A DNA stretch of 64,000 nt from the NCBI GenBank assembly GCA_050250895.1, contig JBFWNU010000003.1:523302-587301 (forward strand). Direction: 5' to 3'. The stretch comes from Vulcanimicrobiota bacterium. GTDB lineage: Bacteria > Vulcanimicrobiota > Xenobia > Xenobiales > JADMJV01. Both the position numbers and the translations under genes were made by a program. The stretch's first letter is position 1. Each line of letters opens with the position of its first letter. The notes beneath the pieces are model-generated. The model was not told where the DNA came from. It searched no databases and saw nothing but the letters and a program-made list of their open reading frames with translations. Below, in pieces: positions 5,768-61,635 of this stretch.

Positions 5768-7354
5768 ATGAGTGCTGTAGACGAGAAAGAAGGAATCGCC
5801 GTAGGGGAATCGGTGGACTATGGCGAGTTGATGGAAGAGGGCCAGCAGCTGGTCGAAAAGCTCGACTACAGCGCCGCTCTCAAAGTTTATGATCGGGCCC
5901 TCAAAGCGGCCCAGAAGATGACGGGGGACGAGAAGGCCCTGCTGGTGGCCCGCGCCCGCAATGGCTATGCCGAGTGTTGTGAAGTGGTGGGCCGGTGGGA
6001 CCGCGCTCAACGCGAACTGCGCCGCACCGTGGAGTCTGAACTCGAAGGCGAAGAGCGCTTCGAGGTAGCCCGAGCCTTACTCGAGCTTGGCACCGTGCTC
6101 AGCCGCCGGGGGGAACGCGACGAGGCCCGTGACCACTATCAGGAAGCCATGGAGGTGGCCGGCGAGATCGGGGCCGTGCGCCTCAAGACCATCGCCCAGT
6201 GTCACCTGGGCGCCAACTCGGGTCGCACCGGCGAGATGGATAGCTCGTATCGTCACCTCGAAGACGCCACCCGGGCCGTCAACGAACTGCCCGACGACCC
6301 CGAAAACGCCGAGGTCAAAGCCTTGCTCGAGAGCCAGTATGGGCTCTACTACTTCCGCACGGGCCAGAACAAGAAGGCCGAAGAACACTTCCAGGCGGCC
6401 CTCAAAGCTCTCGACGGCAAGCCCAGCCTCGAGGAAGCCTCGGTTCGCCGCTTTCTGGGCGTCATGGCCGGGCTGCGTCGCGAACATCGCGAGGCTCTCA
6501 ACAATCACCTGGTGGCTCTCAAGATCTACAAGGAAGCCGGCTGCCGTTACGGTCAGGCCAAGGTCTATGACAGCATCGGTCGCACCTTCCTGGCCGTCAA
6601 CCGCATGGAAGAGGCCATCTTCTCGTTCAAGAAGGCGGAATCGATCTGCCGTCGCCTGGGCGCCAACTCCGAGCTGGCCACCCTCTACGGCAAGCTGGGC
6701 CAGGTCTACATGATTCGCGAAGACTACGAGACGGCCGTCAAATACTTCCGCCGCGACCTCGACATCAGCTCGCGCTATCGTAACTATTACGCCCTGGGCT
6801 ATTCCTACCGCAACCTGGGCCGCTCGCTCATCCAGGTGGGCATCATGGAAGAGGCCATCGCCAATCTCAAGGAAAGCCTCGGCCTGTTCCAATACGTCGA
6901 GGACAGCATCAATCTGGCCCGCGTCTACATGGACCTGACCCAGGCCTACGTCAAGGCCGAGAAGCCGGCCGAAGCCAAAGAGACGGCCGGCAAAGCCCGG
7001 GCCATCTTCGAAGAGAGCCAGCTCGATCGCGAGCTTGCCTATCTCAAGGGCCTGCAGGCCACGATCCACCGCCTCGAGCGCGAGTTCGAGCAGTCCGAGT
7101 CGCTCTTCAAAGAGGCCATCGACGAGTTGCCCGACAAAGGCTTTGATGCCTGGCGGGCCGAGACGAGCTACGAGATGGGTATCCTCTATCGCGAACTCGA
7201 CCGCCTGCCCGAGGCCGTCTCGGCCTTCCGCGACGCCCTCGAGATCGCCCGCGCCGCCGGCCTCAACCGCCACACCGGTCGCTATCTGCGCGACATCGAG
7301 TCGCTCGACGAGACCGAACTCTTCCGGGCCTGGATGGAGGACCTGCCGAGCTAG
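5768..7354 (+). CDS. Tetratricopeptide repeat protein
   Basis: Serial TPR-like units (e.g. AKVYDSIGRTFLAVNRMEEAIFSFKKAESI, ATLYGKLGQVYMIREDYETAVKYFRRDL). Confidence 0.88.
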   Translation: MSAVDEKEGIAVGESVDYGELMEEGQQLVEKLDYSAALKVYDRALKAAQKMTGDEKALLVARARNGYAECCEVVGRWDRAQRELRRTVESELEGEERFEVARALLELGTVLSRRGERDEARDHYQEAMEVAGEIGAVRLKTIAQCHLGANSGRTGEMDSSYRHLEDATRAVNELPDDPENAEVKALLESQYGLYYFRTGQNKKAEEHFQAALKALDGKPSLEEASVRRFLGVMAGLRREHREALNNHLVALKIYKEAGCRYGQAKVYDSIGRTFLAVNRMEEAIFSFKKAESICRRLGANSELATLYGKLGQVYMIREDYETAVKYFRRDLDISSRYRNYYALGYSYRNLGRSLIQVGIMEEAIANLKESLGLFQYVEDSINLARVYMDLTQAYVKAEKPAEAKETAGKARAIFEESQLDRELAYLKGLQATIHRLEREFEQSESLFKEAIDELPDKGFDAWRAETSYEMGILYRELDRLPEAVSAFRDALEIARAAGLNRHTGRYLRDIESLDETELFRAWMEDLPS

Positions 7355-7530
7355 CGCTCGCTGCGCTCGGAGAGGGGAGCGCTCGCTGTGCTCGCGAGAA
7401 GGGAGCGCTCGCTGTGCTCGGAGAGGGGAGCCTCGCTGCGCTCGGAGAGGGGAGCCGCTTCGCGGAGAGGGGAGCGCTGGCTCGCTTGCGCTCGCCAGCG
7501 AGAAGGGAGCGAGGCTCGCAAGCTCGCCTC
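7354..7530. repeat. REP-like cluster: four ~25-nt tandem units GCGCTCGCTG(C/T)GCTCGGAGAGGGGA followed by short hairpins joined by GAG(G/A)GGGAG linkers
   Basis: Units at 7354-7378, 7379-7404, 7405-7429 and 7430-7453, then hairpins CCGC-TTC-GCGG, CGCTGGC...GCCAGCG, CGAGGC...GCCTCG. Confidence 0.8.
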
Positions 7531-7594
7531 GAGTTTTTGAGGCACTCGACGCTTCGCGTCGTTATTCTGGGCGGCTTCGCCGCGGTCCGGGCTG

Positions 7595-7966
7595 GCCGGG
7601 CCACTCCCGCGCGGAAGAGGAGCGGCCATAGCCGCCACGATTTCGGCGTACCACGCTGCCAAATGGCCGGCCTCGCCGGCCGGGCTTGGGCCGGCAGCTC
7701 GCCGGGGCCCAGCCGCACGGAAGAAGCTGGCCCCGAAGGGCAGCCCTGCCGGGCCGAACGCCTGCTCGCTGTCTCCCGGCGGGTGTGCGCCGTACAGTCC
7801 GGTTCAGCCAGTGTGCGGCGCAAGTGTGCGCCGCACAGGGCGGTTTGCCTGGTGTGCGGCGCACAACGTTGCTCACGGTCGCCGCCCCGCCCGTCGGCCT
7901 CGCCGGGGCCGGGCCCTGCCGGCAAGCTCGCCCGGGCCACTTCCGCCCGGAAGACGAGCTGGCCCC
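7595..7966. repeat. Degenerate triplicated GC-rich unit carrying CTTCC-N4-GGAAG-type cores, plus TGTGCGGCGCA inverted repeats
   Basis: GCCGGGCCACTCCCGCGCGGAAGAGGAGCGGCC (~7595), GCCGGGGCCCAGCCGCACGGAAGAAGCTGGCCCC (~7701), GCCCGGGCCACTTCCGCCCGGAAGACGAGCTGGCCCC (~7930); located between convergent genes. Confidence 0.65.
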
Positions 7967-7985
7967 AGCCGAAACCGGTCCAGCC

Positions 7986-9164
7986 CTAGCTGCGCTTGAC
8001 GAAATAGGCGGCCTCTTGGTCGCCTTGACGGAGCACGACTTTGCCGCCCTTGGCCCCGGTCAAGAGCCAGAAGTTGGCTTTGGCCTCGATTCCTTTGAGG
8101 GGGTTCTTGCGCCCTTTGTCGGGTTTGAAGTCGCTATAGGTCAGGTAGGAGTCGTCGATGGTGGGGCTTGAGATCTTGCCAGTGTAGCTCTGACCGTCGA
8201 TGACCAGCTTGAGGGTCTCTTTCTCGGTGGTCACCTCGACCTCGCGCGGCAGGCCCGCCGGCGCGTTCTTGTTCTTGCCGGCGTAGGTGAAGGCGGGCAG
8301 ACGGTCGGCGGGGGTGCTGGTGGGGGGAATTGTCTTGTCGAGCCCGGGCACGTCGACATAGATGTTGTCGCGGGCGGCCAGATAGTCGGCTAGCGAAGCC
8401 ACCATGTCCATCTTGTTGTCGGGGATGGCCGGGTTCGGCTCGCCTTTGGCGGTCTTGCGCCACAAAGCCATGTGGTTCGAGGCGATCTGCGCGGCCGTCT
8501 TCTTGACGTCGGCCGGGCCTTTCAAGCCTTTGATGAGTTCGCCGGCCAACTCGCCGTGGTCGTTGGCGTAACCGTTCCACGGCACCCCACCCTTGACCGT
8601 GTCGTGCAGGAGCAGCCCGGCTCGCAGGGTGTCCTGTTCGCGTTCGCTGAGCCCGAAGAACTCACCCAGGTGCTCGCCCATCTGCACCACTCGCGCGGTA
8701 TGCAGGGCCAGCCCGCCATCGTTGATCTCGTCGGCCGGATGGAACATCCCTGAAGAAGACGAGGGAGCCCGGAAGAACTCGCTGTCGACCTCTTTGAACC
8801 CGGCCACGACCATGGCTCGGATGGAGGGGTCGACGATCAGGTCGGTGGCCGTCTGCAAAGCCACTTTGCCGCAGGCTTTCACCCAACCCGACGAGGCCGC
8901 GGCGACCTCGGCCCGGTCCTCGATGCGGCCCTGGCCGAAGACCGGGGTGGGACGAAAGTTGATGCCAGGCTTCTTGGAGAGAAAGTCTGAGAGCTTGTCG
9001 ACTCGAGCTTCGAGAGCAACGTCGTCGTGGGGCTGGAGGTCGGGAGGATAGATGGTGCCATCGAGGCCACTTCCATTCTTTTCACCGTGCATCTGGTGGT
9101 ATCCGTGGAGTTCGGTTTGAAACTCCTGGCGAAGCCTGGTCCGCGGGCTGACAGCGTTCATCAT
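7986..9164 (-). CDS. HD-domain phosphohydrolase (YhaM-like/phage-type HD) with N- and C-terminal extensions
   Basis: FFRAPSSSSGMFHP...GGLALHT, LLLHDTVK, DHGE, NHM, ADYLAAR; GGAGGA before ATG ATG at 9164/9161 (ORF track start 9320 is probably too long). Confidence 0.8.
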   Translation of the reverse strand: MMNAVSPRTRLRQEFQTELHGYHQMHGEKNGSGLDGTIYPPDLQPHDDVALEARVDKLSDFLSKKPGINFRPTPVFGQGRIEDRAEVAAASSGWVKACGKVALQTATDLIVDPSIRAMVVAGFKEVDSEFFRAPSSSSGMFHPADEINDGGLALHTARVVQMGEHLGEFFGLSEREQDTLRAGLLLHDTVKGGVPWNGYANDHGELAGELIKGLKGPADVKKTAAQIASNHMALWRKTAKGEPNPAIPDNKMDMVASLADYLAARDNIYVDVPGLDKTIPPTSTPADRLPAFTYAGKNKNAPAGLPREVEVTTEKETLKLVIDGQSYTGKISSPTIDDSYLTYSDFKPDKGRKNPLKGIEAKANFWLLTGAKGGKVVLRQGDQEAAYFVKRS

Positions 9165-9274: not shown

Positions 9275-9898
9275 ATGAGAATCCAACCTGCCACTCCCTT
9301 TCTCGACTTCGCCAAGGCACGCGCCGCCGAGCGCCAACGAGACGAATTGCCGGCCGCTGCCGTCGACAGCTGGGAGAGCGTCGGCCGCGACCAGCTCGAA
9401 AACCTGCACGGCCAGCTTCAGCCTCAGAGCAAGGACTTTCCTAACCTTCAGGCCGCCTGGGTGTTGGGGCTGGGCAATCCTATCCTGGGAGCGGTCTTGC
9501 GGGGTGAGCAAGAGCGGATGAAGAGCTATGACTTCGCCTCGAGCCTGACCGAGGTGGGTGGAGTCAACGCCCGCGAGATTCGCCAGGCGGCAAGCCTTCG
9601 CCAGGAGAGATTGCGCCAATCGGCTGAGCGCCTCGAGTCACTGGCTGGGGTCGGCTCGATGGTGGGCTGGGCCGGAGCCTTCTGCGCTATCGGAGGCTGT
9701 CTGCTCGACGGGATGACCAACCCGGTCACCCTGACCGGTGCGGCCGCCACGGTGGCCGGGATAACCACCAACGCCCTGGCCCACCGCGCCCGCGAGGGCA
9801 AGCTGGAGCAGGCGCACCACCTCGGGACGATGGCCGGCCAGATCAAGACTTACGCCGAACTGACCGCCCGCCTCGAGACCTCAACCCTGGCCTGCTAA
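9275..9898 (+). CDS. Hypothetical protein with two C-terminal hydrophobic segments
   Basis: 207-aa ORF; hydrophobic GVGSMVGWAGAFCAIGGCLL and VTLTGAAATVAGI; TAGACT -10-like hexamer 5 nt upstream. Confidence 0.6.
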   Translation: MRIQPATPFLDFAKARAAERQRDELPAAAVDSWESVGRDQLENLHGQLQPQSKDFPNLQAAWVLGLGNPILGAVLRGEQERMKSYDFASSLTEVGGVNAREIRQAASLRQERLRQSAERLESLAGVGSMVGWAGAFCAIGGCLLDGMTNPVTLTGAAATVAGITTNALAHRAREGKLEQAHHLGTMAGQIKTYAELTARLETSTLAC

Positions 9899-9965
9899 CT
9901 TCCCGGGGTCGACTACCGGCCTCTACTCTAGCGAGTTTGGGACGGACGTGGTAAACTCGAGGCGC

Positions 9966-10307
9966 ATGCTTGAATTGCCATCCAGGACCGACCACGTTCA
10001 TCTTGTCAGGGACTCTCACGGCGGGGTTCGCATTGGCAAAACCCGGGTTTCCCTGGACAGTGTGGTCCACGCTTACCTGCTTGGCGCCACTGCCGAAGGA
10101 ATTGCGGAGCAGTTTCCTTCTCTCGGCTTGGCCGACGTTCACTCCGTGCTAGGATTCTATCTTCGTCATCGTGACCAGGTGGATGCTTATTTGGCGGAGC
10201 GACAGGCCGAAGGACAAGCCCTGCGAGAGAACTACGAGCAAAGCGATGAGCTTCAGGGCTATCGGCAGCGCCTGCTTGCGCGGCAGGCTCAACGGAGGGG
10301 TAAATAG
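9966..10307 (+). CDS. DUF433-family antitoxin (VapB45-like)
   Basis: GGVRIGKTRVSLDSVVHAYLLGATAEGIAEQFPSLGLADVHSVLGFY is typical DUF433; TG-G-TAAACT extended -10 at 9949-9957. Confidence 0.88.
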   Translation: MLELPSRTDHVHLVRDSHGGVRIGKTRVSLDSVVHAYLLGATAEGIAEQFPSLGLADVHSVLGFYLRHRDQVDAYLAERQAEGQALRENYEQSDELQGYRQRLLARQAQRRGK

Positions 10308-10642
10308 ATTCGCCTGTTGTCGAGTTCGCCGGGGGCGCTGCAACTAGCTAAGAGCCAAAGGTCTTCAATGATGGCTGCTACGAACGCTGGTTGCGGGACC
10401 AGCACGAGACCGGGGCTCGGCAACCCGAGCATCATTCGCTCGTCAAAGTAGTATATCATCGTGTTCACGTCGTGGGTGAGCACGATTCGCCTTTCGTTGG
10501 TGGCCCACTCTAGGAGTTCCGGATCTTCGGAGCCGGCCATCACTGTGTCTTGGACCCGAACGATATCTATGGCGGGGTGACGACGCTCAAGCCCTCGCAG
10601 GATGTGGTTGTTGAAATTCTCGTCGGCGGCGAACCTGAGCAT
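10289..10642 (-). CDS. DUF5615-family PIN-like toxin (VapC45-like)
   Basis: MLRFAADENFN...GSEDPELLEWATNERRIVLTHD; the ATG overlaps the upstream stop (TGATG). Confidence 0.88.
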   Translation of the reverse strand: MLRFAADENFNNHILRGLERRHPAIDIVRVQDTVMAGSEDPELLEWATNERRIVLTHDVNTMIYYFDERMMLGLPSPGLVLVPQPAFVAAIIEDLWLLASCSAPGELDNRRIYLPLR

Positions 10643-11508
10643 CAGAGGAAACCGGCGGGCTTTGCGGTTCCCGTCGCGAACCATCCGGGTCGTGGCAGTG
10701 CCGGGGTCAAAAAGTATGTGACTGACGGAGAGGCAAACACTCGGTCCACCAGGCCTTCTGGGGTGAAGGTAACCAGAATGAAGAGCGAATCGTCAACCTC
10801 GATAAAGCCAGACTTCGCAACAGGGCCAAACGCTCGCTCTACAACAGATCGGCTCATTCCCGCTTCGACCACTCGGCCGTCGCGCAAGCGAAGACTGCGA
10901 CCCTCAAGAGCTTGTAGGGTGCGATTGAGGTAGAAATACCCAATCTGCAAAGGCCACATGGAACAGAATTGGCCCTCGACCGGGATCCCTAGTCTGGATA
11001 TGACCTCCGCTCGGGTGGCTCCTAGTGGGACCTCGTCGACCACGCACCCGACCGGCAACTTTAGCTTGGCGCCCTCGGGCTCCGACAACCAATCCTGGGG
11101 TAGTTCGGCCTTAACGGCGCTCCACACTTTGAGAAAGGCCTGCAGTTCCGGGTCAAAGATGGCTTCCTCAGCCCGATTGGTCGACCAGCAGCGTTCTCTG
11201 CCTCCCGCGCTCACGGTGATATTCCGGTGCAAGTTGCCGCAAAGATACGGAATCCAGGAGGGGTAATCCGTCTGTAAACTTTGAAACTCTGGCGACCCCA
11301 CGGCTGACCGTATTCGCTGGAGCGCTTCAGGCGTTAGCCGAACAGCTCCACCGCGCCGGCGCGCAAGCCCGCTAGCGTCAACGGTAACGAGCTCATAGCT
11401 TCCCGCGAACCCTCGATAGTTGAGTTCGAGATTGCACTGCCAGGCGTCATCTTGGGCCAAAACCGGCAGGCCGAGGAGCAGTAACAGACCGAGTATTGTT
11501 CTGGCCAC
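10642..11508 (-). CDS. Exported hypothetical protein
   Basis: 288-aa ORF; signal peptide MARTILGLLLLLGLPVLAQ. Confidence 0.65.
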   Translation of the reverse strand: MARTILGLLLLLGLPVLAQDDAWQCNLELNYRGFAGSYELVTVDASGLARRRGGAVRLTPEALQRIRSAVGSPEFQSLQTDYPSWIPYLCGNLHRNITVSAGGRERCWSTNRAEEAIFDPELQAFLKVWSAVKAELPQDWLSEPEGAKLKLPVGCVVDEVPLGATRAEVISRLGIPVEGQFCSMWPLQIGYFYLNRTLQALEGRSLRLRDGRVVEAGMSRSVVERAFGPVAKSGFIEVDDSLFILVTFTPEGLVDRVFASPSVTYFLTPALPRPGWFATGTAKPAGFL

Positions 11509-11610
11509 GGCTACCTGTTCGGCTTAGGAGGCCTCAACCCTGGCCTGCTAACTTCCGCGCGGAAGTCGGCGGCTGTGCAATCGGGCCCGCATTTTGCTAC
11601 ACTGTCTGAG

Positions 11611-13401
11611 GTGGGGTTGAGTGTGAGGAGAGGGAACGCTCTGCTGACCATCATCACGTTGATGATGGTCATGTTTGTTCTTCTCAACGCCCTGGTCGCG
11701 CTGTCTGCCGACCGGTCCAGTCAGGCCACCCTCTACTACCAGGAAGTAGCCAGCCTCGAACTGACCGAAGCCGCCGTCACCGATGTCCTGGTCCAACTCG
11801 AGGCCGATCCCGATTGGACCGAAGGCTTTGACCAGAAGAAGATCGATGCCAAAATGCCGGGTCACTACACGGTCACTTTCAACACCAGTGGGGCGGGTTT
11901 TGCAGCTGAGGATTCGATCAACAATCTGCTCGGTGATGAACCGGCGGACAGCTATCTGGGCACCGACAGTGTGCCACCCCACACGGTTTTTCTGGTAGTC
12001 ACCACCCAGGTGGGCAGCCAGGTGGTTCAATCGCAGGTCGTGCTCGGGTCGGCGGGAGGGTCGCTGGGGGACTACGCGATTGCTGCCTCCCGCAACATCA
12101 TCATGGTGGGCGACGTCAAAGTCAGCGGCATCAAGAGTCTGTCCGAAACCGACCCCATCAAGGCCAACATCCATTCCAACCGCTCCGAACTCAGTAGCGA
12201 TATCATCCAGTGGTATCCCAAGAAGACGGGGGACACGGTTGAAGTGGACGGCAGTCTGAGCGTCACCAGCGAGCATCCCTCGGCCATCGGGTTGCACGGC
12301 CCGGTCGGCAGTTTCAACGTCGACGAACTGATTGTGGGGGCGCCCGCCAAACCTCCCCCGACGTTCGATATCCAGAGCCAATTGATGGCGAATCGAGGGC
12401 ATCCAAGACCACCGCTGATCGCTGGCGATAACGTCCTATCACCGGGAAAATACTACGTTCCCGGGGATATCGAGATGCTGGGCGACCTGACTCTTGACGG
12501 AGCAACCCTGTATGTAGAAGGCCAATTGGTCATGGGAGGCAGCCTGAAGGGGGACGGCTCGGTCTTCGTGGGCGAGGAGACCATCGTGGCCGGGGATTCC
12601 GTGGTGGCTTCCAACAACGACCAGGGCATCGCCTTGTATAGTCGGGGACCGGTCACCCTCACCGGGTTCGCCCTCGAGATCTACATCGACGAACTGGGCA
12701 ACAGCGACCCCCAACTCGGTGTTTTGATGGACCAGATTCAGGGGGTCCTGGGTGAACTCGAGTCAGCTTCCGACATGAATCAGGTGACCCGCTTGCTCAA
12801 CGCCGCGGGCAATCCCACTGGCCCGACGCCCCCTGGTCTACCCAACGACCTTTTGGGCAAGATTGCCGAGAGGGTGCAGCAGGCGCCTGCCACCAGTACC
12901 CGAGACAGCCTGCTGACCCGCCTCGACAACCTCAAGAAAGTGTACTCTCCCGTAGATGGCAATGCCAGCAACCCCGCCGGGACCACCGCCCAGCAGATTC
13001 TCGATAGCTGGCGCGACCCGGATCAGCCCGACCTTTCTGGTCTGATGGGGGCGGGGTTGGAGATCTATTTGACGACCCACGACGCGGAGATCCTGGAATT
13101 GCTCGAGCATTACAGTCTGGAGTATCAAGACCCCTGGGGGAGCGCTCGCTCTTACTTCCAGGGCATCGTCTATAGCAACAGCTGGGTGGCCATCGACAAC
13201 CAGGTCGAGCTGCTGGGTTCGGTCTGGGCTTTTGACGACGGCAGCCAGCTTCAAAACGGCGACTTCGACGGATACACCGCCCGACCCGGCGACATCTTGC
13301 TGCTCAATAACAGCCGTCTGACTCTCAACCGCGAGTACGCCGACAAAATGAGCGCCGAGAGCGGGTCCTTTCTGGGGGTGCGAAGTTGGACCACCCGGTA
13401 G
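11611..13401 (+). CDS. Large PilX/GspK-like minor pilin (cluster 1); start 11611 or 11623
   Basis: RRG|NALLTIITLMMVMFVLL prepilin-like N-terminus lacking E5, followed by A..L.EA; beta-helix-like repeats (PGKYYVPGDIEMLGDLTL...LYVEGQL; FQGIVYS). Confidence 0.75.
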   Translation: MGLSVRRGNALLTIITLMMVMFVLLNALVALSADRSSQATLYYQEVASLELTEAAVTDVLVQLEADPDWTEGFDQKKIDAKMPGHYTVTFNTSGAGFAAEDSINNLLGDEPADSYLGTDSVPPHTVFLVVTTQVGSQVVQSQVVLGSAGGSLGDYAIAASRNIIMVGDVKVSGIKSLSETDPIKANIHSNRSELSSDIIQWYPKKTGDTVEVDGSLSVTSEHPSAIGLHGPVGSFNVDELIVGAPAKPPPTFDIQSQLMANRGHPRPPLIAGDNVLSPGKYYVPGDIEMLGDLTLDGATLYVEGQLVMGGSLKGDGSVFVGEETIVAGDSVVASNNDQGIALYSRGPVTLTGFALEIYIDELGNSDPQLGVLMDQIQGVLGELESASDMNQVTRLLNAAGNPTGPTPPGLPNDLLGKIAERVQQAPATSTRDSLLTRLDNLKKVYSPVDGNASNPAGTTAQQILDSWRDPDQPDLSGLMGAGLEIYLTTHDAEILELLEHYSLEYQDPWGSARSYFQGIVYSNSWVAIDNQVELLGSVWAFDDGSQLQNGDFDGYTARPGDILLLNNSRLTLNREYADKMSAESGSFLGVRSWTTR

Positions 13402-13799
13402 GCAAGGGCTTCACCCTGGTCGAGGTGCTGATCGTGGCGGCCGTCGGGGCCGTCGCGCTCTTGACCTTGATTGGAGTGTTTTTGCTCGGCTATCGCTGGT
13501 CCACCGAAAGCCAGAGTCGACTGCTGGCCGCCCAGTTGGCCCGCAATGGCCTGGAGGCAGTCCGAGCCACCCCTTTCGAAGACTTGCCCGACACGGCTCG
13601 CACCTTCGACGGCAGCCGGTCCGATCCGGCCGACGGTCCCTTTCCCCCGGCTCCCTACCCGAGTCTCAGCCTCGACGGCCAGGAATTTACCTTCGTCTAT
13701 GTCATCGAGCCACTTTCGGACAGAGCCCGTGACGTGCGCGTCGAGGTGCGTCCGCGCGGCAAACAACCCGTTGTGTTGAGAACCTATGTCCGGCCCTGA
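13386..13799 (+). CDS. Prepilin-type N-methylation domain protein (PilV/GspI-like)
   Basis: KG|FTLVEVLIVAAV; AAQLARNGLEAVR. Confidence 0.88.
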   Translation: MDHPVGKGFTLVEVLIVAAVGAVALLTLIGVFLLGYRWSTESQSRLLAAQLARNGLEAVRATPFEDLPDTARTFDGSRSDPADGPFPPAPYPSLSLDGQEFTFVYVIEPLSDRARDVRVEVRPRGKQPVVLRTYVRP

Positions 13800-14379
13800 G
13801 CGACGCTTCGGCTTCAGCCTGCTGGAGGTGCTCGTGAGCGTGGCCATCCTCAGTCTCGTCTTCACCGCTTTGCTGGCTGTCTACGCCTTTGGGATCCGCC
13901 TTTTCACGCGAACCGACCAGCGCAGCGAACTCATTCGTAACGCTCAATTGGCCGTCACCACCCTCCAGCACGACCTGATGGATAGCAGCTTCGCCAGCCT
14001 CGAGATCGACGGTTCGACGCTGGCCTTTCTCGCTCCCAGTCCGGCCTCGCTCGATTCTTCAGGCCGAGCCACCTGGAAGAGCTACCTCATCTATTCGCTG
14101 GAGGAGAGAACCCTGCGACGCCGGGTGGTGGAGATTCCGGCCGGCGCTCCGCAGGTGGAGAGCCCGGGACCGATCTCGGGCTTTGATCCCGGCAGCGGAC
14201 CTCAAGAGCTATCTGCTTACCTCACCAGCGTTCCCCAAAGTCGGGTGATGGCCCGCGAACTCGACCAATTCATCGTCTATCCCGACGAGCAATCGCAATC
14301 GGTCAAGGTCGAGCTTCTTTTCAGCCGGCAAGGCAGCCAGCTGACTATCCCTGTCTCGGTCCGTCTTCACAATGACTAG
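13786..14379 (+). CDS. Prepilin-type protein (PilW/GspJ-like)
   Basis: RFG|FSLLEVLVSVAILSLV; AQLAVTTLQHDL. Confidence 0.88.
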   Translation: MSGPERRFGFSLLEVLVSVAILSLVFTALLAVYAFGIRLFTRTDQRSELIRNAQLAVTTLQHDLMDSSFASLEIDGSTLAFLAPSPASLDSSGRATWKSYLIYSLEERTLRRRVVEIPAGAPQVESPGPISGFDPGSGPQELSAYLTSVPQSRVMARELDQFIVYPDEQSQSVKVELLFSRQGSQLTIPVSVRLHND

Positions 14380-15424
14380 GCCCTCGTTTCCAGGCGATCA
14401 GCTGACGGTGGTCTTGCGGATGCTGAGTACCCTGCTGACCTCGGGGGTGCCGGTGCATCGGGCTCTGGAACTCGTGGTCGAAGGCTGCTCGACGGGCCCG
14501 GTTCGCGACACCCTGGCCTCCGTTTCTGCCTCGGTCTCGCAAGGCCAACGGTTGAGCATGGCCCTGGCTCAAGCGCCTCAAGCCTTTCCCCCGCTCCTGG
14601 AAAGCCTGGTCCGCGCTGGAGAGGATTCAGGTCAATTGGACGCCTTACTGGCGCGCTATGTGGTCTTTCACGAAAGTTCGGCGCGAACGGCCCGCCAGCT
14701 ACGCGCAGCTCTGACTTACCCGGCCATCGTGCTGGTTCTGACCGTGGTGGTGGTGGCCATCATGGCCGTGGTCGTCTTTCCCCGCCAACGCGAGCTGTAT
14801 CAGTCCCTGGGCGTCACTGAGGTCTCGGTGCTGACGCGCCTGCTGGAGGGTCTGCTCGGATTGGCCGCCTGGCTTCCCTGGTTGGCGGTGGCATCGCCTT
14901 TGCTGGTGTTGGCCAATTCGACCCTGGACGCCTCGACCCGCCAGAAGCTCCGCGAAGCGTTCGACGGAGCTCTCCTGCGCCTGCCCTTGCTGGGCTCGGT
15001 GATCCACAAGGCCGCCACCGTTCGTCTGCTGATAGGGTTGGCCATCTTCTTCGAAGCCGGAATTACTCTCGGTCCCGCCTTTCGGCCGCTGGGCAAGATG
15101 CTCGGGAACGCGATCCTGGAGAACCGTTTTGCTCAGTTCCTCGAGAGCATCGCTAAAGGCGGTTGCAGCCTGTCGCTGGCAGCCTCGCAGTCGGAGGCCT
15201 TCTTGCCGGTGGTGGTAGCCCTCTTTCGGGTCGGAGAAGAGCAAGGTTCCCTGAGCCACCTCTGCCGCCAGACAGCCGACATCGTAGAACTCGAGGTCGA
15301 ATCCAGCTTCAGGACCCTGGAGACCCTCCTCGAGCCGCTGGCGATGGCGGTGATGGGGCTGGTCGTGGGTTTCGTGGTGCTGGCCTCCTCGCTGCCCATG
15401 TTGGGAGTCCTGCAGCAACTCTAG
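14372..15424 (+). CDS. Type II secretion system F / PilC family platform protein (short form)
   Basis: LSTLLTSGVPVHRAL, GQRLSMAL, AGEDSGQL, AALTYP, VGEEQGSL, TLLEP; two T2SSF domains. Confidence 0.92.
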   Translation: MTRPSFPGDQLTVVLRMLSTLLTSGVPVHRALELVVEGCSTGPVRDTLASVSASVSQGQRLSMALAQAPQAFPPLLESLVRAGEDSGQLDALLARYVVFHESSARTARQLRAALTYPAIVLVLTVVVVAIMAVVVFPRQRELYQSLGVTEVSVLTRLLEGLLGLAAWLPWLAVASPLLVLANSTLDASTRQKLREAFDGALLRLPLLGSVIHKAATVRLLIGLAIFFEAGITLGPAFRPLGKMLGNAILENRFAQFLESIAKGGCSLSLAASQSEAFLPVVVALFRVGEEQGSLSHLCRQTADIVELEVESSFRTLETLLEPLAMAVMGLVVGFVVLASSLPMLGVLQQL

Positions 15425-59854: not shown

Positions 59855-60107
59855 GACCGTCTTCCAGCTGGAAGTACCCTCGTCCTCGCCCGTTGCGAGA
59901 AAATGTTGTGGTATCCTAATATTTGCGCACCGAGAGATTGTTCCGGTTGGAGTCCAACCTCAAAACATCGCTTCTAAAGTCCCCAGAGACCCTGTCCGGT
60001 ATCCTGGCGCCAGAATGCTTCGCAGAACGGATTTTGGCGCCGCAAGGCCTTCTCGCGGCCACCTGCGAGTCGCCTCGAAAAACCCGTAATCAAGCCGTTT
60101 TCTTGCG

Positions 60108-60136
60108 TTGATCGGGATGGCGATCTTGAGTAAAAT
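60108..60136 (+). promoter_or_regulatory. Sigma70-type promoter of the HNH gene
   Basis: TTGATC-N17-TAAAAT; GGAGG Shine-Dalgarno at 60166-60170. Confidence 0.6.
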
Positions 60137-60176
60137 AGGAGTATCCCTTGATTCTTCTTCTAACCGGAGGTCGGCT

Positions 60177-61364
60177 ATGTCTTCAACGCTAACTGGGCTT
60201 TCCCAAACACTGCAACAACTCTCTCACCAGGAACTGCACCGGCGAAACCAACAGGCTAGCCAGCGCTCCTTTGGCTGCGAGTGGGAGCTGGCCGCCCACC
60301 TTCTAGCTACCGAGCGCAGCGGTCTCTACCGTCACATGGGTAGTGGAAGCGTGGTTGGCTACGCCATCAATCATCTCAATCTGCATCCCCAGAAGGCCGG
60401 TGAACTGCTTAGCCTGGCCAGGGTCTTCGAGCAACTGCCTCTGATATCAGAGGCCTTTCGCGAGGGGAGACTTTGCTGGAGCAAGGCCCGTGCTCTCAAG
60501 CGCATCACCACTCCCGAGAACGAGGCTGAAATGCTCGAATTTGCTTTGAAGAACAAGGCCCAGGCAGTCGAGCGCGCCGTCGCTCTGACTCCCGCCCAGC
60601 ATAAGCGTGGCCAGGCTTTGAAAGCCTCCCTCGAAGCACGTCAGAGTCAGCCCGCGCTGACCTTCGCTGAACAACGCACCGAGGCAGTTCACAAGCCAGC
60701 GCCGCCCCCCGGGCCAGAGGCTCCGAAGTTGAGACAGGTCGTCCTGCTGATGACCTCCGAGCAATACGCCATCTATGAGCAAGCCAAGAGAATGGTCGAG
60801 GCCCGCCAGGGCAAGCGCGTCAGCAAAGAAACGGCTGTGACCGAGATGAGCCGAGCCCTTCTCGCCTCGGCAGACAACCGCAGCAAAGTGCGACATCAGG
60901 TCATTGTTCACGTGAACGGTGAGACCGGCCAGGGCTTCTATGATACCGATCGAGGACTGTTGCCAGCCGAGCCTGCGGCCGTTGACGAGGCGATGAAGCA
61001 AACCGGCATCGTGGTGTCCGGGGCCCCCAGCGTACTTCCAGCTGGAAGTACTCAGGCCGAACAGTTGCCGTTGCTGCCGAGTCGCTCCCAAGGCCGTACG
61101 GGCATTCCGGTGGGTTTGGTGCGAGCGGTCTACGCCCGCGCTTTCGGCCGCTGTGAGCGATGCTCGTGCACAGGCGGCAATCTGGTAATTCATCACGTCC
61201 GTGCCTGGTCCGATACCAGGCGGCATCGGCTGGAAGATCTGGAACTGCTGTGCCCGGGTTGCCACGCCAACGAGCACGTCAAAGACTATGAAAGTCGGCC
61301 CGAGTGGCAGGCAGCGCGAGACGCGGGGGTGCAGCGCCGGCGCATCAGGTCGCGCTCGGGGTGA
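60177..61364 (+). CDS. HNH endonuclease with DUF222-like N-terminal helical domain
   Basis: LAAHL...GLY...GSGSVVGYA...LARVFEQLPLISEAFREGRLCWSKAR N-terminus; C-terminal CERC...IHHV.AWS.....LEDLELLCPGCH..EH. Confidence 0.88.
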   Translation: MSSTLTGLSQTLQQLSHQELHRRNQQASQRSFGCEWELAAHLLATERSGLYRHMGSGSVVGYAINHLNLHPQKAGELLSLARVFEQLPLISEAFREGRLCWSKARALKRITTPENEAEMLEFALKNKAQAVERAVALTPAQHKRGQALKASLEARQSQPALTFAEQRTEAVHKPAPPPGPEAPKLRQVVLLMTSEQYAIYEQAKRMVEARQGKRVSKETAVTEMSRALLASADNRSKVRHQVIVHVNGETGQGFYDTDRGLLPAEPAAVDEAMKQTGIVVSGAPSVLPAGSTQAEQLPLLPSRSQGRTGIPVGLVRAVYARAFGRCERCSCTGGNLVIHHVRAWSDTRRHRLEDLELLCPGCHANEHVKDYESRPEWQAARDAGVQRRRIRSRSG

Positions 61365-61635
61365 CGTCGCCCGGTGCCTTGTCACCGCCGTCCGGGGCGC
61401 CTTATTGGCCGCGCTTCGCCCCTGGACTGTCTTCCATCTGGAAGTACTCGCGCGAATAGTGTTGTGTTCGACTGCGCTGGGCGCCTGGCAGGCTTAGTCG
61501 GCCAACTCATCGGGGGTTACGCCGTTGCGGCCCAGGGGCATCCTCGCTAGACCAAAGACATCGACATTTGGATAGACGCGCAACGACTGATAGTTTCAAG
61601 CTTCTTTCAGGCGGTGCGGCTAGGCTGGCAATACC

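Follow-up and report, generated by a model that had tools for sequence, protein, structure and literature searches.

Our analysis of a 64,000-nucleotide stretch of a Vulcanimicrobiota genome (the window) centred on a small island that follows an orphan gene and lies between two copies of a short direct repeat. The features, in window coordinates, are as follows.

9275..9898, + strand: target gene, an open reading frame for an orphan 207-aa protein; no Pfam match, GC3 0.80
9875..9903, + strand: proximal (left) repeat copy; working gene end, ETSTLAC-stop, plus CTTCC
9904..11527, no strand: putative inserted block, 1,624 bp; single copy in the genome, no terminal inverted repeats
9966..10307, + strand: DUF433 protein, putative antitoxin, 113 aa; PF04255, E 1.4e-7, 31.7 bits (cut-off 23.6)
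10289..10642, - strand: DUF5615/PIN-like protein, putative toxin, 117 aa; PF18480, E 5.8e-8, 33 bits (cut-off 23.8)
10642..11508, - strand: orphan 288-aa protein with a signal-peptide-like N-terminus; no Pfam match
11528..11556, + strand: distal (right) repeat copy; displaced pseudo-end, EASTLAC-stop, after an in-frame TAG
11551..11566, no strand: perfect 16-nt palindrome ACTTCCGCGCGGAAGT, from a CTTCC-N4-GGAAG family with 413 genomic copies

Three intact genes fill the block, and since its non-coding DNA amounts to only 44 nt and 19 nt at the two ends, there is no room for integrase debris. A preliminary description of this DNA had listed the cargo as a toxin-antitoxin (TA) pair plus an exported protein with no recombinase, and the family matches and the lack of any such enzyme bear this out, with the correction that the TA genes are convergent and do not form an operon. 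Both family domains lie on adjacent small genes whose 3' ends overlap by 19 nt instead of following each other in one direction; among six relatives' loci, the DUF433/DUF5615 layout is likewise convergent in four and co-directional in two. The putative antitoxin gene has its ATG at 9966 and an alternative GTG start at 9948, the 113-aa form being the one on record, as is the 117-aa form of the putative toxin, which has a weaker second match to PIN_10 (PF18478, E 8.7e-4). The genomic context of the TA module varies from relative to relative. Repeats of 150 nt around the module of one relative were set aside, as they belong to a dispersed family of which that genome holds seven more partial matches.

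The third gene ends in a TGA that overlaps the toxin ATG (TGATG, 10640-10644). Its 288-aa product has a hydrophobic N-terminus that resembles a signal peptide by eye, and the protein is predicted to be exported. The genome encodes a single paralogue of it, 36% identical, and it has only five matches among 1.84 billion representatives; viral contigs, 40 relatives and 400 genomes of the phylum yielded only the protein itself and one paralogue, and an ESM Atlas search gave no usable lead (best score, 0.82). PADLOC and NCBIfam assigned no name to the cargo, and a scan for consensus promoters between 9800 and 11700 found none. The protein clusters contained no relatives of the cargo at 90% identity, and the genes of the right flank (608 aa and 137 aa) are singletons at that level as well.

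The direct repeat consists of an exact 25-mer found twice, at 9879-9903 and 11532-11556, which extends to a 29-nt version with one mismatch (A at 9878 versus G at 11531; 9875-9903 and 11528-11556). In the 9.5-Mb assembly the 29-mer has these two copies only, with no third copy or look-alike even when up to 6 mismatches in 29 were allowed, and when the 1.4 kb surrounding the two copies were aligned with gaps, no other homology emerged (best other match, E = 0.30). None of 100 dinucleotide-preserving shuffles of the window contained two repeat matches, even allowing three mismatches. Its coordinates, its uniqueness and its non-randomness confirm the observation in the preliminary description of a repeat that brackets a recombinase-free island of about 1.65 kb. 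A misassembly, or a repeat that arose by chance within an ancestral order of genes, is a very improbable explanation of the arrangement. In its favour, no sequencing run was listed. Against it, the shuffles indicate that chance would not be expected to place two exact 25-nt copies at a distance of 1.65 kb, and a repeat of 25 to 29 nt is shorter than the usual assembly k-mers. Furthermore, the gene order appears to be reproduced in a second, independent assembly (Logan), where the HD, toxin, exported-protein and 608-aa genes apparently lie on one contig, as judged from an equal contig size of 8,929 bp.

The left copy holds the final seven sense codons of the 207-aa gene, its TAA stop (9896-9898) and CTTCC, beyond which the sequence is unrelated. 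Directly preceded by an in-frame TAG (11525-11527), the right copy runs on into the complete ACTTCCGCGCGGAAGT, so that the earlier reading of a left copy with a gene end and half a palindrome, and a right copy entering the full one, holds. Rfam and tRNA scans at the putative insertion site returned nothing. The 207-aa protein has three relatives with identities of at least 90% (P0002, P0004 and P0005), which their source labels Candidatus Eremiobacteraeota and whose C-termini read LEASTLAR or LEASPLGR. All three share the Ala codon of the right copy, while the working left copy encodes Thr at this position. These 92%-type relatives lie on short contigs of 3021 bp (P0002, Logan), 2191 bp (P0004, a MAG contig) and 1567 bp (P0005, Logan). 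The 3,021-bp contig carries the HD gene and the 207-aa gene, leaving about 1.1 kb unexplained; an N-terminal fragment of the 608-aa protein, sought in protein clusters for the occupancy of that contig, was not found. None of 40 relatives' genomes showed a true match to the 207-aa gene at DNA or protein level, the protein had no match in genome and metagenome contigs, and the repeat had none in genome, metagenome and viral contig collections. In a same-genus genome, the neighbour of the HD gene is a paralogue of the 608-aa gene with 31% identity, in another orientation. The relatives and contigs searched yielded no empty site, which leaves an insertion unproven against the alternative of an old arrangement.

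The interior is atypical in composition. The insert's GC content, 58.6%, ranks at the 5th percentile among genome windows of equal size, and the GC3 of its genes is 0.61 to 0.69 versus 0.74 to 0.84 for the neighbours, which corresponds to percentiles of about 5, 10 and 27 among long open reading frames. With respect to mobility genes, the genome has 15 Phage_integrase matches, none of them on the 861-kb contig of the window, and no serine recombinase or Y1 transposase matches. Inspection of open reading frames and Pfam searches of cargo and neighbours detected neither mobility genes nor pseudogene debris in or beside the insert. The block also differs from an insertion sequence or DNA transposon: its ends share an inverted repeat of at most 6 nt, it has no transposase, and the duplication is 29 nt long.

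We searched the whole genome for other repeats of this build. An exact scan for sharply bounded repeats of at least 20 nt, present in two copies 0.8 to 40 kb apart, passed 9 of 71 candidates. Seven of these had repeats of 20 to 21 nt, and the others were the island (25 nt) and C4:263118/264268 (60 nt). In a mismatch-tolerant scan, 16 of 192 pairs were sharply bounded, including the island and two look-alike cassettes.

C4:263118/264268: repeat of 60/60 nt over the stop codon of a GyrB-like gene; cargo, an AbiEii-like nucleotidyltransferase gene and a 77-aa gene
C4:612826: repeat of 29 nt over the stop codon of a caspase-domain gene; cargo, an RHH antitoxin and a PIN toxin

The genome therefore contains at least three recombinase-free TA mini-islands, with repeats of 29, 60 and 29 nt at the stop codons of different host genes. 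No end sequences are common to their inserts, each of which is single copy and without inverted termini, and their repeats are mutually unrelated. Neither integrase genes nor pseudogene debris were found in or beside any of the three. In five relatives, no homologue of the nucleotidyltransferase or the 77-aa gene was found within about 1.5 kb downstream of the GyrB-like orthologue. Three other candidates were discarded: C2:473561, where the 25-nt repeat reflects an HNH gene that has been partly duplicated, C5:84109, which proved to be an Rhs tip, and C10:4512, an element that carries IS110.

The explanation that we favor, at a probability of about one half, is that a selfish TA addiction cassette entered at the end of the 207-aa gene with duplication of 29 bp of the target. 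In this scenario, the cassette would comprise the convergent putative DUF433/DUF5615 pair together with a gene for a secreted protein that is translationally coupled to the toxin gene. Its insertion would have copied seven codons, the stop and five further nucleotides, and because these 29 bp were duplicated the 207-aa gene would have stayed whole, its old end being stranded as a pseudo-end beside the palindrome. The duplication would most likely have arisen when foreign DNA was captured at a staggered double-strand break that was then filled in; the genome does carry a Ku gene. The repeats would permit precise loss, and only those inserts whose loss is punished by a toxin may remain. For this reading speak the sharp edges, uniqueness and non-randomness of the repeat, the atypical composition and an insert full of intact genes. 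The preliminary description had likewise proposed an insertion with a long duplication and no recombinase, and the deviating GC and GC3 together with two further cassettes of the same build back that proposal. Several points argue against it. The duplication of a gene end is also a signature of integrases that target gene 3' ends, and Thr in the working copy is as compatible with a replacement end carried in by an element as with a later mutation. In addition, a homologous VapBC pair in a same-genus genome sits at another location without a flanking repeat, and neither our analysis nor the portions of the literature consulted provide a demonstrated mechanism for long target duplication.

Integrases that target gene ends classically restore the gene end and displace the old one, and prophages can enter a protein gene at its 3' end, carrying a substitute end. 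Integrase-less remnants and cis-mobilisable elements are flanked by att sites. This opens the way for another explanation, which we regard as possible but rather unlikely, namely, that the repeats are attL and attR of a site-specific integrative element whose target was the 207-aa gene at its 3' end and which supplied a new end in exchange. Its integrase would have been deleted later or would act from elsewhere, leaving a cis-mobilisable remnant in which the TA pair is kept because its loss is penalised. A restored gene end with the old end displaced to the far side is the classical geometry of such direct repeats, and the displaced copy is the one that retains the Ala of the relatives (3 of 3), the working copy having Thr. 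The right copy also contains a 5-bp inverted repeat, AGGCC-N8-GGCCT, albeit a weak one, as 14 of 200 shuffles fold equally well. The genome also has the 15 tyrosine-recombinase matches and tRNA-linked islands with repeats of 48 to 64 nt; one of these, a 5.1-kb island at a tRNA-Lys gene with a 53-nt repeat, has no Phage_integrase match and, by eye, a terminase-like remnant. Nevertheless, the integrase is missing from all three mini-islands without leaving a gene or debris, and the explanation would require three independent elements, each decayed to little beyond a TA pair. The island is only 1.6 kb long, the 29-mer has no further copy or look-alike in the genome, its sequence is absent from the genome, metagenome and viral contig collections, and we found no related integrase-bearing element with the repeat core.

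For the target-duplication reading, the closest known kind of event is the insertion with long target duplication described for restriction-modification (R-M) units, which the island resembles; its anatomy, its recurrence and its lack of shared ends and of a recombinase are direct observations. In the sections of Furuta et al. 2010 (PMC2853133) consulted, R-M units without other mobile genes are inserted with target duplications that are long and variable; examples include 46-bp repeats sharing 15 bp and 2 bp with the 3' end of a gene, and an earlier Helicobacter pylori study is cited. Like those R-M units, the island is a small addiction-type unit of atypical GC that lacks both a transposase and an integrase. 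In both cases the flanking direct repeat has no further copies in the genome and reaches into the upstream gene at its 3' end, and its length varies between events. Unlike them, the island carries a TA pair and belongs to a different phylum. Moreover, these sections use a length above 30 bp to exclude site-specific recombination; the island repeat, at 29 nt (25 exact), is shorter than this, and that of C4:263118 measures 60 nt.

The cassette behind the caspase-domain gene (C4:612826) is strikingly like a locus of Microcystis aeruginosa, where, in the part of Klemencic et al. 2021 (PMC7935541) consulted, the orthocaspase gene MaOC1 is followed by a ParE/ParD-like TA pair between two 152-bp direct repeats. 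Both loci have a TA pair directly after a host gene with direct repeats on both sides. The MaOC1 repeats begin 14 bp past the stop and contain a 16-bp inverted repeat, whereas those described here are 29 to 60 nt long and include the stop codon. The same part of that paper offers no account of how the repeats originated.

The palindrome at the right junction belongs to an abundant family. Its 413 copies compare with 11 to 20 expected, and only 13% of them lie in bodies of open reading frames versus 74% for random sites, as in a REP-like intergenic family. It is linked to a family of 16 DUF222-HNH genes, 15 of which have a palindrome within 2.5 kb, versus 8.2% of random windows. At these genes its positions are fixed, about 220 to 340 nt upstream of the start and inside the reading frame at about +920 nt. 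The palindrome lies within 35 nt of the distal repeat in two of the three islands, and the repeat of the third abuts a different repeat array.

REP sequences together with a RAYT transposase form REPtrons. The present family is similar to these, and to the REP13E12/DUF222/HNH repeats of mycobacteria named in the part of PMC10589994 consulted, in being a short palindrome with hundreds of intergenic copies and fixed places around a multicopy nuclease gene. It differs from REPtrons in that the genome has no RAYT (0 matches to PF01797), the linked gene is DUF222-HNH, and one palindrome copy lies inside its reading frame; no link of the family to the insertion of the island has been shown. The literature excerpts consulted contain no link between DUF222-HNH and palindromes.

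The preliminary description had also proposed that the palindrome defines the insertion junction, a claim for which we found no support. When all 826 palindrome arms were tested and the resulting list was read by eye, the island alone combined a spacing above 600 nt, at most one mismatch and an unrelated continuation, and both look-alikes have repeats anchored on the stop codon of the host gene. Because the junction at a palindrome arm is unique in the genome, targeting to the palindrome is not shown. The corresponding mechanism, in which the palindrome-linked DUF222-HNH family cut CTTCC-N4-GGAAG in trans and so started the insertion, with the repeat ending at the cut, appears improbable to us. 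It would explain why the repeat ends at the border of arm and loop, and it draws on the size of the REP-like family and its fixed places at 15 of 16 DUF222-HNH genes. Palindromes are also rare after stop codons (within 70 nt of only 30 of 9,394 gene ends), yet one lies 34 nt past the distal repeat of C4:612826. On the other hand, that palindrome is off the junction, C4:263118 has none within 600 nt, the geometry of the island has no second example, and the DUF222-HNH protein is without known activity. We also dropped the notion that the repeats are duplicated hairpins, as no consistent structure was found among them (z from -1.66 to +0.9).

Taken alone, the island is a modest finding in an orphan-gene neighbourhood of an uncultured soil lineage. 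The genome, however, supplies three clean cases with differing targets and repeat lengths. Mobile TA cassettes have reportedly been discussed by Pandey and Gerdes in 2005. For the entry of addiction modules, TA or R-M, into chromosomes without a transposase or integrase, we found no experimentally shown mechanism in the portions of the literature consulted. The three cases lead to two testable ideas, namely, that long target duplications stem from staggered breaks and that only inserts whose loss is punished persist between direct repeats. A bolder proposal, and a long shot, is a two-part system in which DUF222-HNH replaces RAYT in spreading or servicing the REP-like palindromes, and enzyme-less TA cassettes enter palindrome-adjacent gene ends through its breaks, with duplications of 29 to 60 nt. 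If true, such a system would for the first time make the mechanism of insertion with long target duplication accessible, and the widespread REP13E12/DUF222-HNH proteins would gain a function.

Our re-inspection of the window upheld the preliminary description in all that it had stated about the direct repeat, the gene end and the palindrome. The repeat (9875-9903 and 11528-11556) is 29 nt long with one mismatch, its final 25 nt being exact. The left copy consists of the seven final sense codons of the 9275-9898 gene, which encodes a 207-aa protein, followed by its TAA and CTTCC, after which the sequence is unrelated; the right copy is immediately preceded by an in-frame TAG and continues into a perfect 16-nt palindrome, ACTTCCGCGCGGAAGT. 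When the window was shuffled 100 times with dinucleotides preserved, two matches to the repeat never arose, even with up to three mismatches tolerated, and in the 9.5-Mb assembly (17 contigs, the window lying on one of 861 kb) the 29-nt sequence has two copies only, even at 6 mismatches in 29. Gapped alignment of the surroundings of the two copies, 1.4 kb in each case, detected no homology above noise beyond the repeat, which is sharply bounded and is not the best-preserved piece of some longer duplication.

The intervening 1,624 bp are nearly all coding, with just 44 nt and 19 nt of noncoding sequence at the ends, and hold three genes:
9966-10307, + strand, DUF433 protein, toxin-antitoxin (TA)-type gene
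10289-10642, - strand, DUF5615/PIN-like protein, TA-type gene
10642-11508, - strand, 288-aa protein without a family match

The first two genes are convergent, their 3' ends overlapping by 19 nt. This layout is no accident of the present locus, as it recurs in four of the six loci with both genes in other genomes of the order (the remaining two being codirectional), in surroundings that vary between genomes. The stop codon of the 288-aa gene overlaps the DUF5615 start (TGATG, 10640-10644), and its product carries an N terminus that, on our reading, resembles a signal peptide. One paralog (36% identity) is encoded in the same genome, and a collection of 1.84 billion representative proteins gave three further matches, two of them weak or fragmentary; a search of 400 genomes from the phylum yielded none. 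The insert contains no recombinase or transposase, nor space for remnants. Tyrosine-recombinase matches in the genome number 15, all on contigs other than that of the window, and neither serine recombinases nor Y1 transposases gave a genomic match. This agrees with the preliminary description of a TA pair accompanied by an exported protein, without a recombinase.

The interior was checked for compositional deviation, as had been proposed. The insert's GC content (58.6%) falls at the 5th percentile of same-size windows, and the GC3 values of the three cargo genes (0.61, 0.69, and 0.63, or about the 5th, 27th, and 10th percentiles of long ORFs) compare with 0.74 to 0.84 in flanking genes. The tetranucleotide distance is unremarkable (79th percentile). 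The low GC and GC3 lend mild support to a separate history of the cargo.

The 207-aa gene is absent from all 40 nearest species genomes, and a same-genus genome has the neighboring HD gene in a different arrangement. A search for an empty allele found no match to the repeat or the proteins in three contig collections. In a large protein collection, the 207-aa protein has three relatives in the same 90% cluster, on contigs of 3,021, 2,191, and 1,567 bp, two of which also carry the HD gene; at 90% identity, no relative was found there for any cargo gene or for either of the genes that follow the island on its right (encoding 608 and 137 aa), and a fragment from the N terminus of the 608-aa protein was likewise not found. 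The latter has at least seven paralogs (28 to 32% identity across most of its length) and belongs to a pseudopilin or type II secretion-like operon (11575-15424), together with two pilins with N-methyl motifs and a T2SS F protein. All three relatives of the 207-aa protein end in Leu-Glu-Ala-Ser. At their Ala position, the working left copy of the repeat encodes Thr and the displaced right copy Ala, while the final Cys codon is common to both copies and corresponds to Arg in the relatives. Since the right copy keeps the Ala codon, it represents the true old-type gene end. The difference may reflect a later mutation of the working copy, or the working copy may have arrived with the insert.

We then consider look-alike islands in the same genome. 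A scan for exact repeats present in two copies, sharply bounded and 0.8 to 40 kb apart, passed 9 of 71 candidates, seven of them of 20 to 21 nt, about the length at which, by a hand estimate of ours, one to a few pairs would arise by chance. The remaining two, which are longer, are the present locus and a 60-nt perfect repeat (C4:263118/264268, on contig C4). A mismatch-tolerant scan, from which 16 of 192 remain, adds a 29-nt repeat (26/29 identical) at C4:612826/613751, and a scan directed at gene ends classed as sharply bounded these three loci and, on C5, a repeat of 100 nt. Of the mismatch-tolerant scan, the other 12 pairs were classified in part. The units are as follows (local excerpts in parentheses):
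C4:263118-264327 (L035 2618-3827), GyrB-linked unit, 1,150 bp, 59.4% GC, after a GyrB-like gene
C4:612826-613779 (L036 1826-2779), caspase-linked unit, 925 bp, 57.1% GC, after a caspase-domain gene
C5:343475-344584 (L037), 1,009 bp, 100-nt repeat (95% identical), single 342-aa ORF
C4:517081-519656 (L044) and C2:281161-283911 (L042), two DUF222/HNH segments, 2.5-2.7 kb, sharply bounded 24-nt and 28-nt repeats

The GyrB-linked repeat comprises the final 13 codons, stop codon, and 17 nt following the GyrB-like gene, and its cargo is an AbiEii-like nucleotidyltransferase with a 77-aa gene. Five relatives were searched over about 1.5 kb downstream of their GyrB-like ortholog, and no homolog of either gene was found there; a closer relative carries them together on a 1,327-bp contig. 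The caspase-linked repeat begins 2 nt before the TGA, and the unit carries genes for a ribbon-helix-helix antitoxin and a PIN toxin, preceded by a candidate near-consensus promoter (TTGACA-17-TATCAT, read by eye). Each of the three islands (the present one and these two) is single copy; none has a recombinase or inverted termini, and they share no end sequence. As for the other units, the C5 ORF has both its start and its end within the repeat and neighbors an HNH gene, and the L044 and L042 segments hold a DUF222 or HNH gene with small overlapping ORF pairs, one small ORF being DUF433 (E 2.3e-18). One further pair of the mismatch-tolerant scan holds a WD40 gene, and its repeat abuts a stop codon.

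The genome also contains a 5.1-kb island beside tRNA-Lys(ctt) (C1:1732756-1737931), where 53 nt of the 3' end of the tRNA are repeated as a flank; it has no Phage_integrase match, and one of its ORFs by eye resembles the small subunit of a terminase. Two other tRNA-linked islands, both with an integrase, measure about 18 kb apiece; they are located on C8 and C1, with repeats of 48 and 64 nt. A large CRISPR-like array occupies C13:80700-94450 (36-nt repeat, period of about 73 to 76 nt, well over 100 copies).

The best fit to three unrelated repeats, each derived from a different host gene's end, with an addiction module as cargo in every case and neither an enzyme nor conserved ends, is insertion with long target duplication. 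The main rival is an att-site pair whose integrase has been lost or acts from afar, which would suit the 29-nt repeat length, the Thr/Ala difference between the working and displaced gene ends, and the precedent of the integrase-free tRNA-Lys island. However, there is no debris whatever, and three separate elements would have to have decayed to the same minimal form.

Insertion at the palindrome, as originally proposed, is a different matter. CTTCC-N4-GGAAG occurs 413 times in the genome (expected, 11 from base composition or 20 from a first-order model), compared with 9 to 21 occurrences for each control arrangement of the same arms; 13% of copies lie inside likely gene bodies, versus 74% of random positions. 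It is a REP-like intergenic repeat. A further copy, at 7940, lies in a spacer of 71 to 74% GC between TPR and HD genes (7200-8000), of a repeat-rich kind common in the genome. We took all 826 arms, each with 15 flanking bases, and sought a second copy up to 40 kb upstream. The palindrome was present at both copies in 1,000 of 1,105 matches; the remainder, read by eye, were degenerate palindromes in short-period arrays or low complexity, with the present locus as the sole exception. The preliminary description had itself named the absence of other islands of this geometry as a refutation, and the outcome is negative for a palindrome-defined junction; insertion with long duplication stands as the best fit, but this specific mechanism is not supported.

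The palindrome is tied to a DUF222-HNH gene family of 16 copies (about 418 aa, 42 to 91% pairwise identity): it lies within 2.5 kb of 15 of them versus 8.2% of random windows, at fixed positions about 220 to 340 nt 5' of the start codon and within the ORF near +920 nt. The window holds one of the 16 loci (59861-61444):
60108-61364, + strand, DUF222-HNH gene
59861, palindrome, 7 nt after the stop codon of the upstream gene
61035, palindrome, intragenic
61431, palindrome

The genome has no RAYT gene, and the association suggests that a REP is paired here with an enzyme of the HNH kind in place of RAYT. Such a nuclease might have made the break that admitted the cassette. Besides the family link, a palindrome lies 34 nt past the distal repeat of the caspase-linked unit, and palindromes are otherwise rare at gene ends (within 70 nt after the stop codon at only 30 of 9,394 likely ends). 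We nevertheless give this low odds. The arm junction is unique to the present locus, and the distal repeat copy of the GyrB-linked island adjoins an array of another palindromic repeat.

Insertion with long target duplication is the term that Furuta, Abe, and Kobayashi apply to restriction-modification units "with no other mobile elements"; among the cases they give are repeats of 46 bp that share 15 bp and 2 bp with the 3' end of a gene, and double-strand breakage is suggested there to take part (PMC2853133). An article on Microcystis describes direct repeats on both sides of a TA pair that immediately follows an orthocaspase gene (PMC7935541). The island is best filed under a known, mechanistically unexplained kind of event. 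In the mechanism that we propose, foreign DNA would be captured by a staggered break where a host gene ends, with subsequent fill-in; Ku is present in the genome. Because direct repeats permit precise loss, only those inserts whose toxin punishes such loss would persist.
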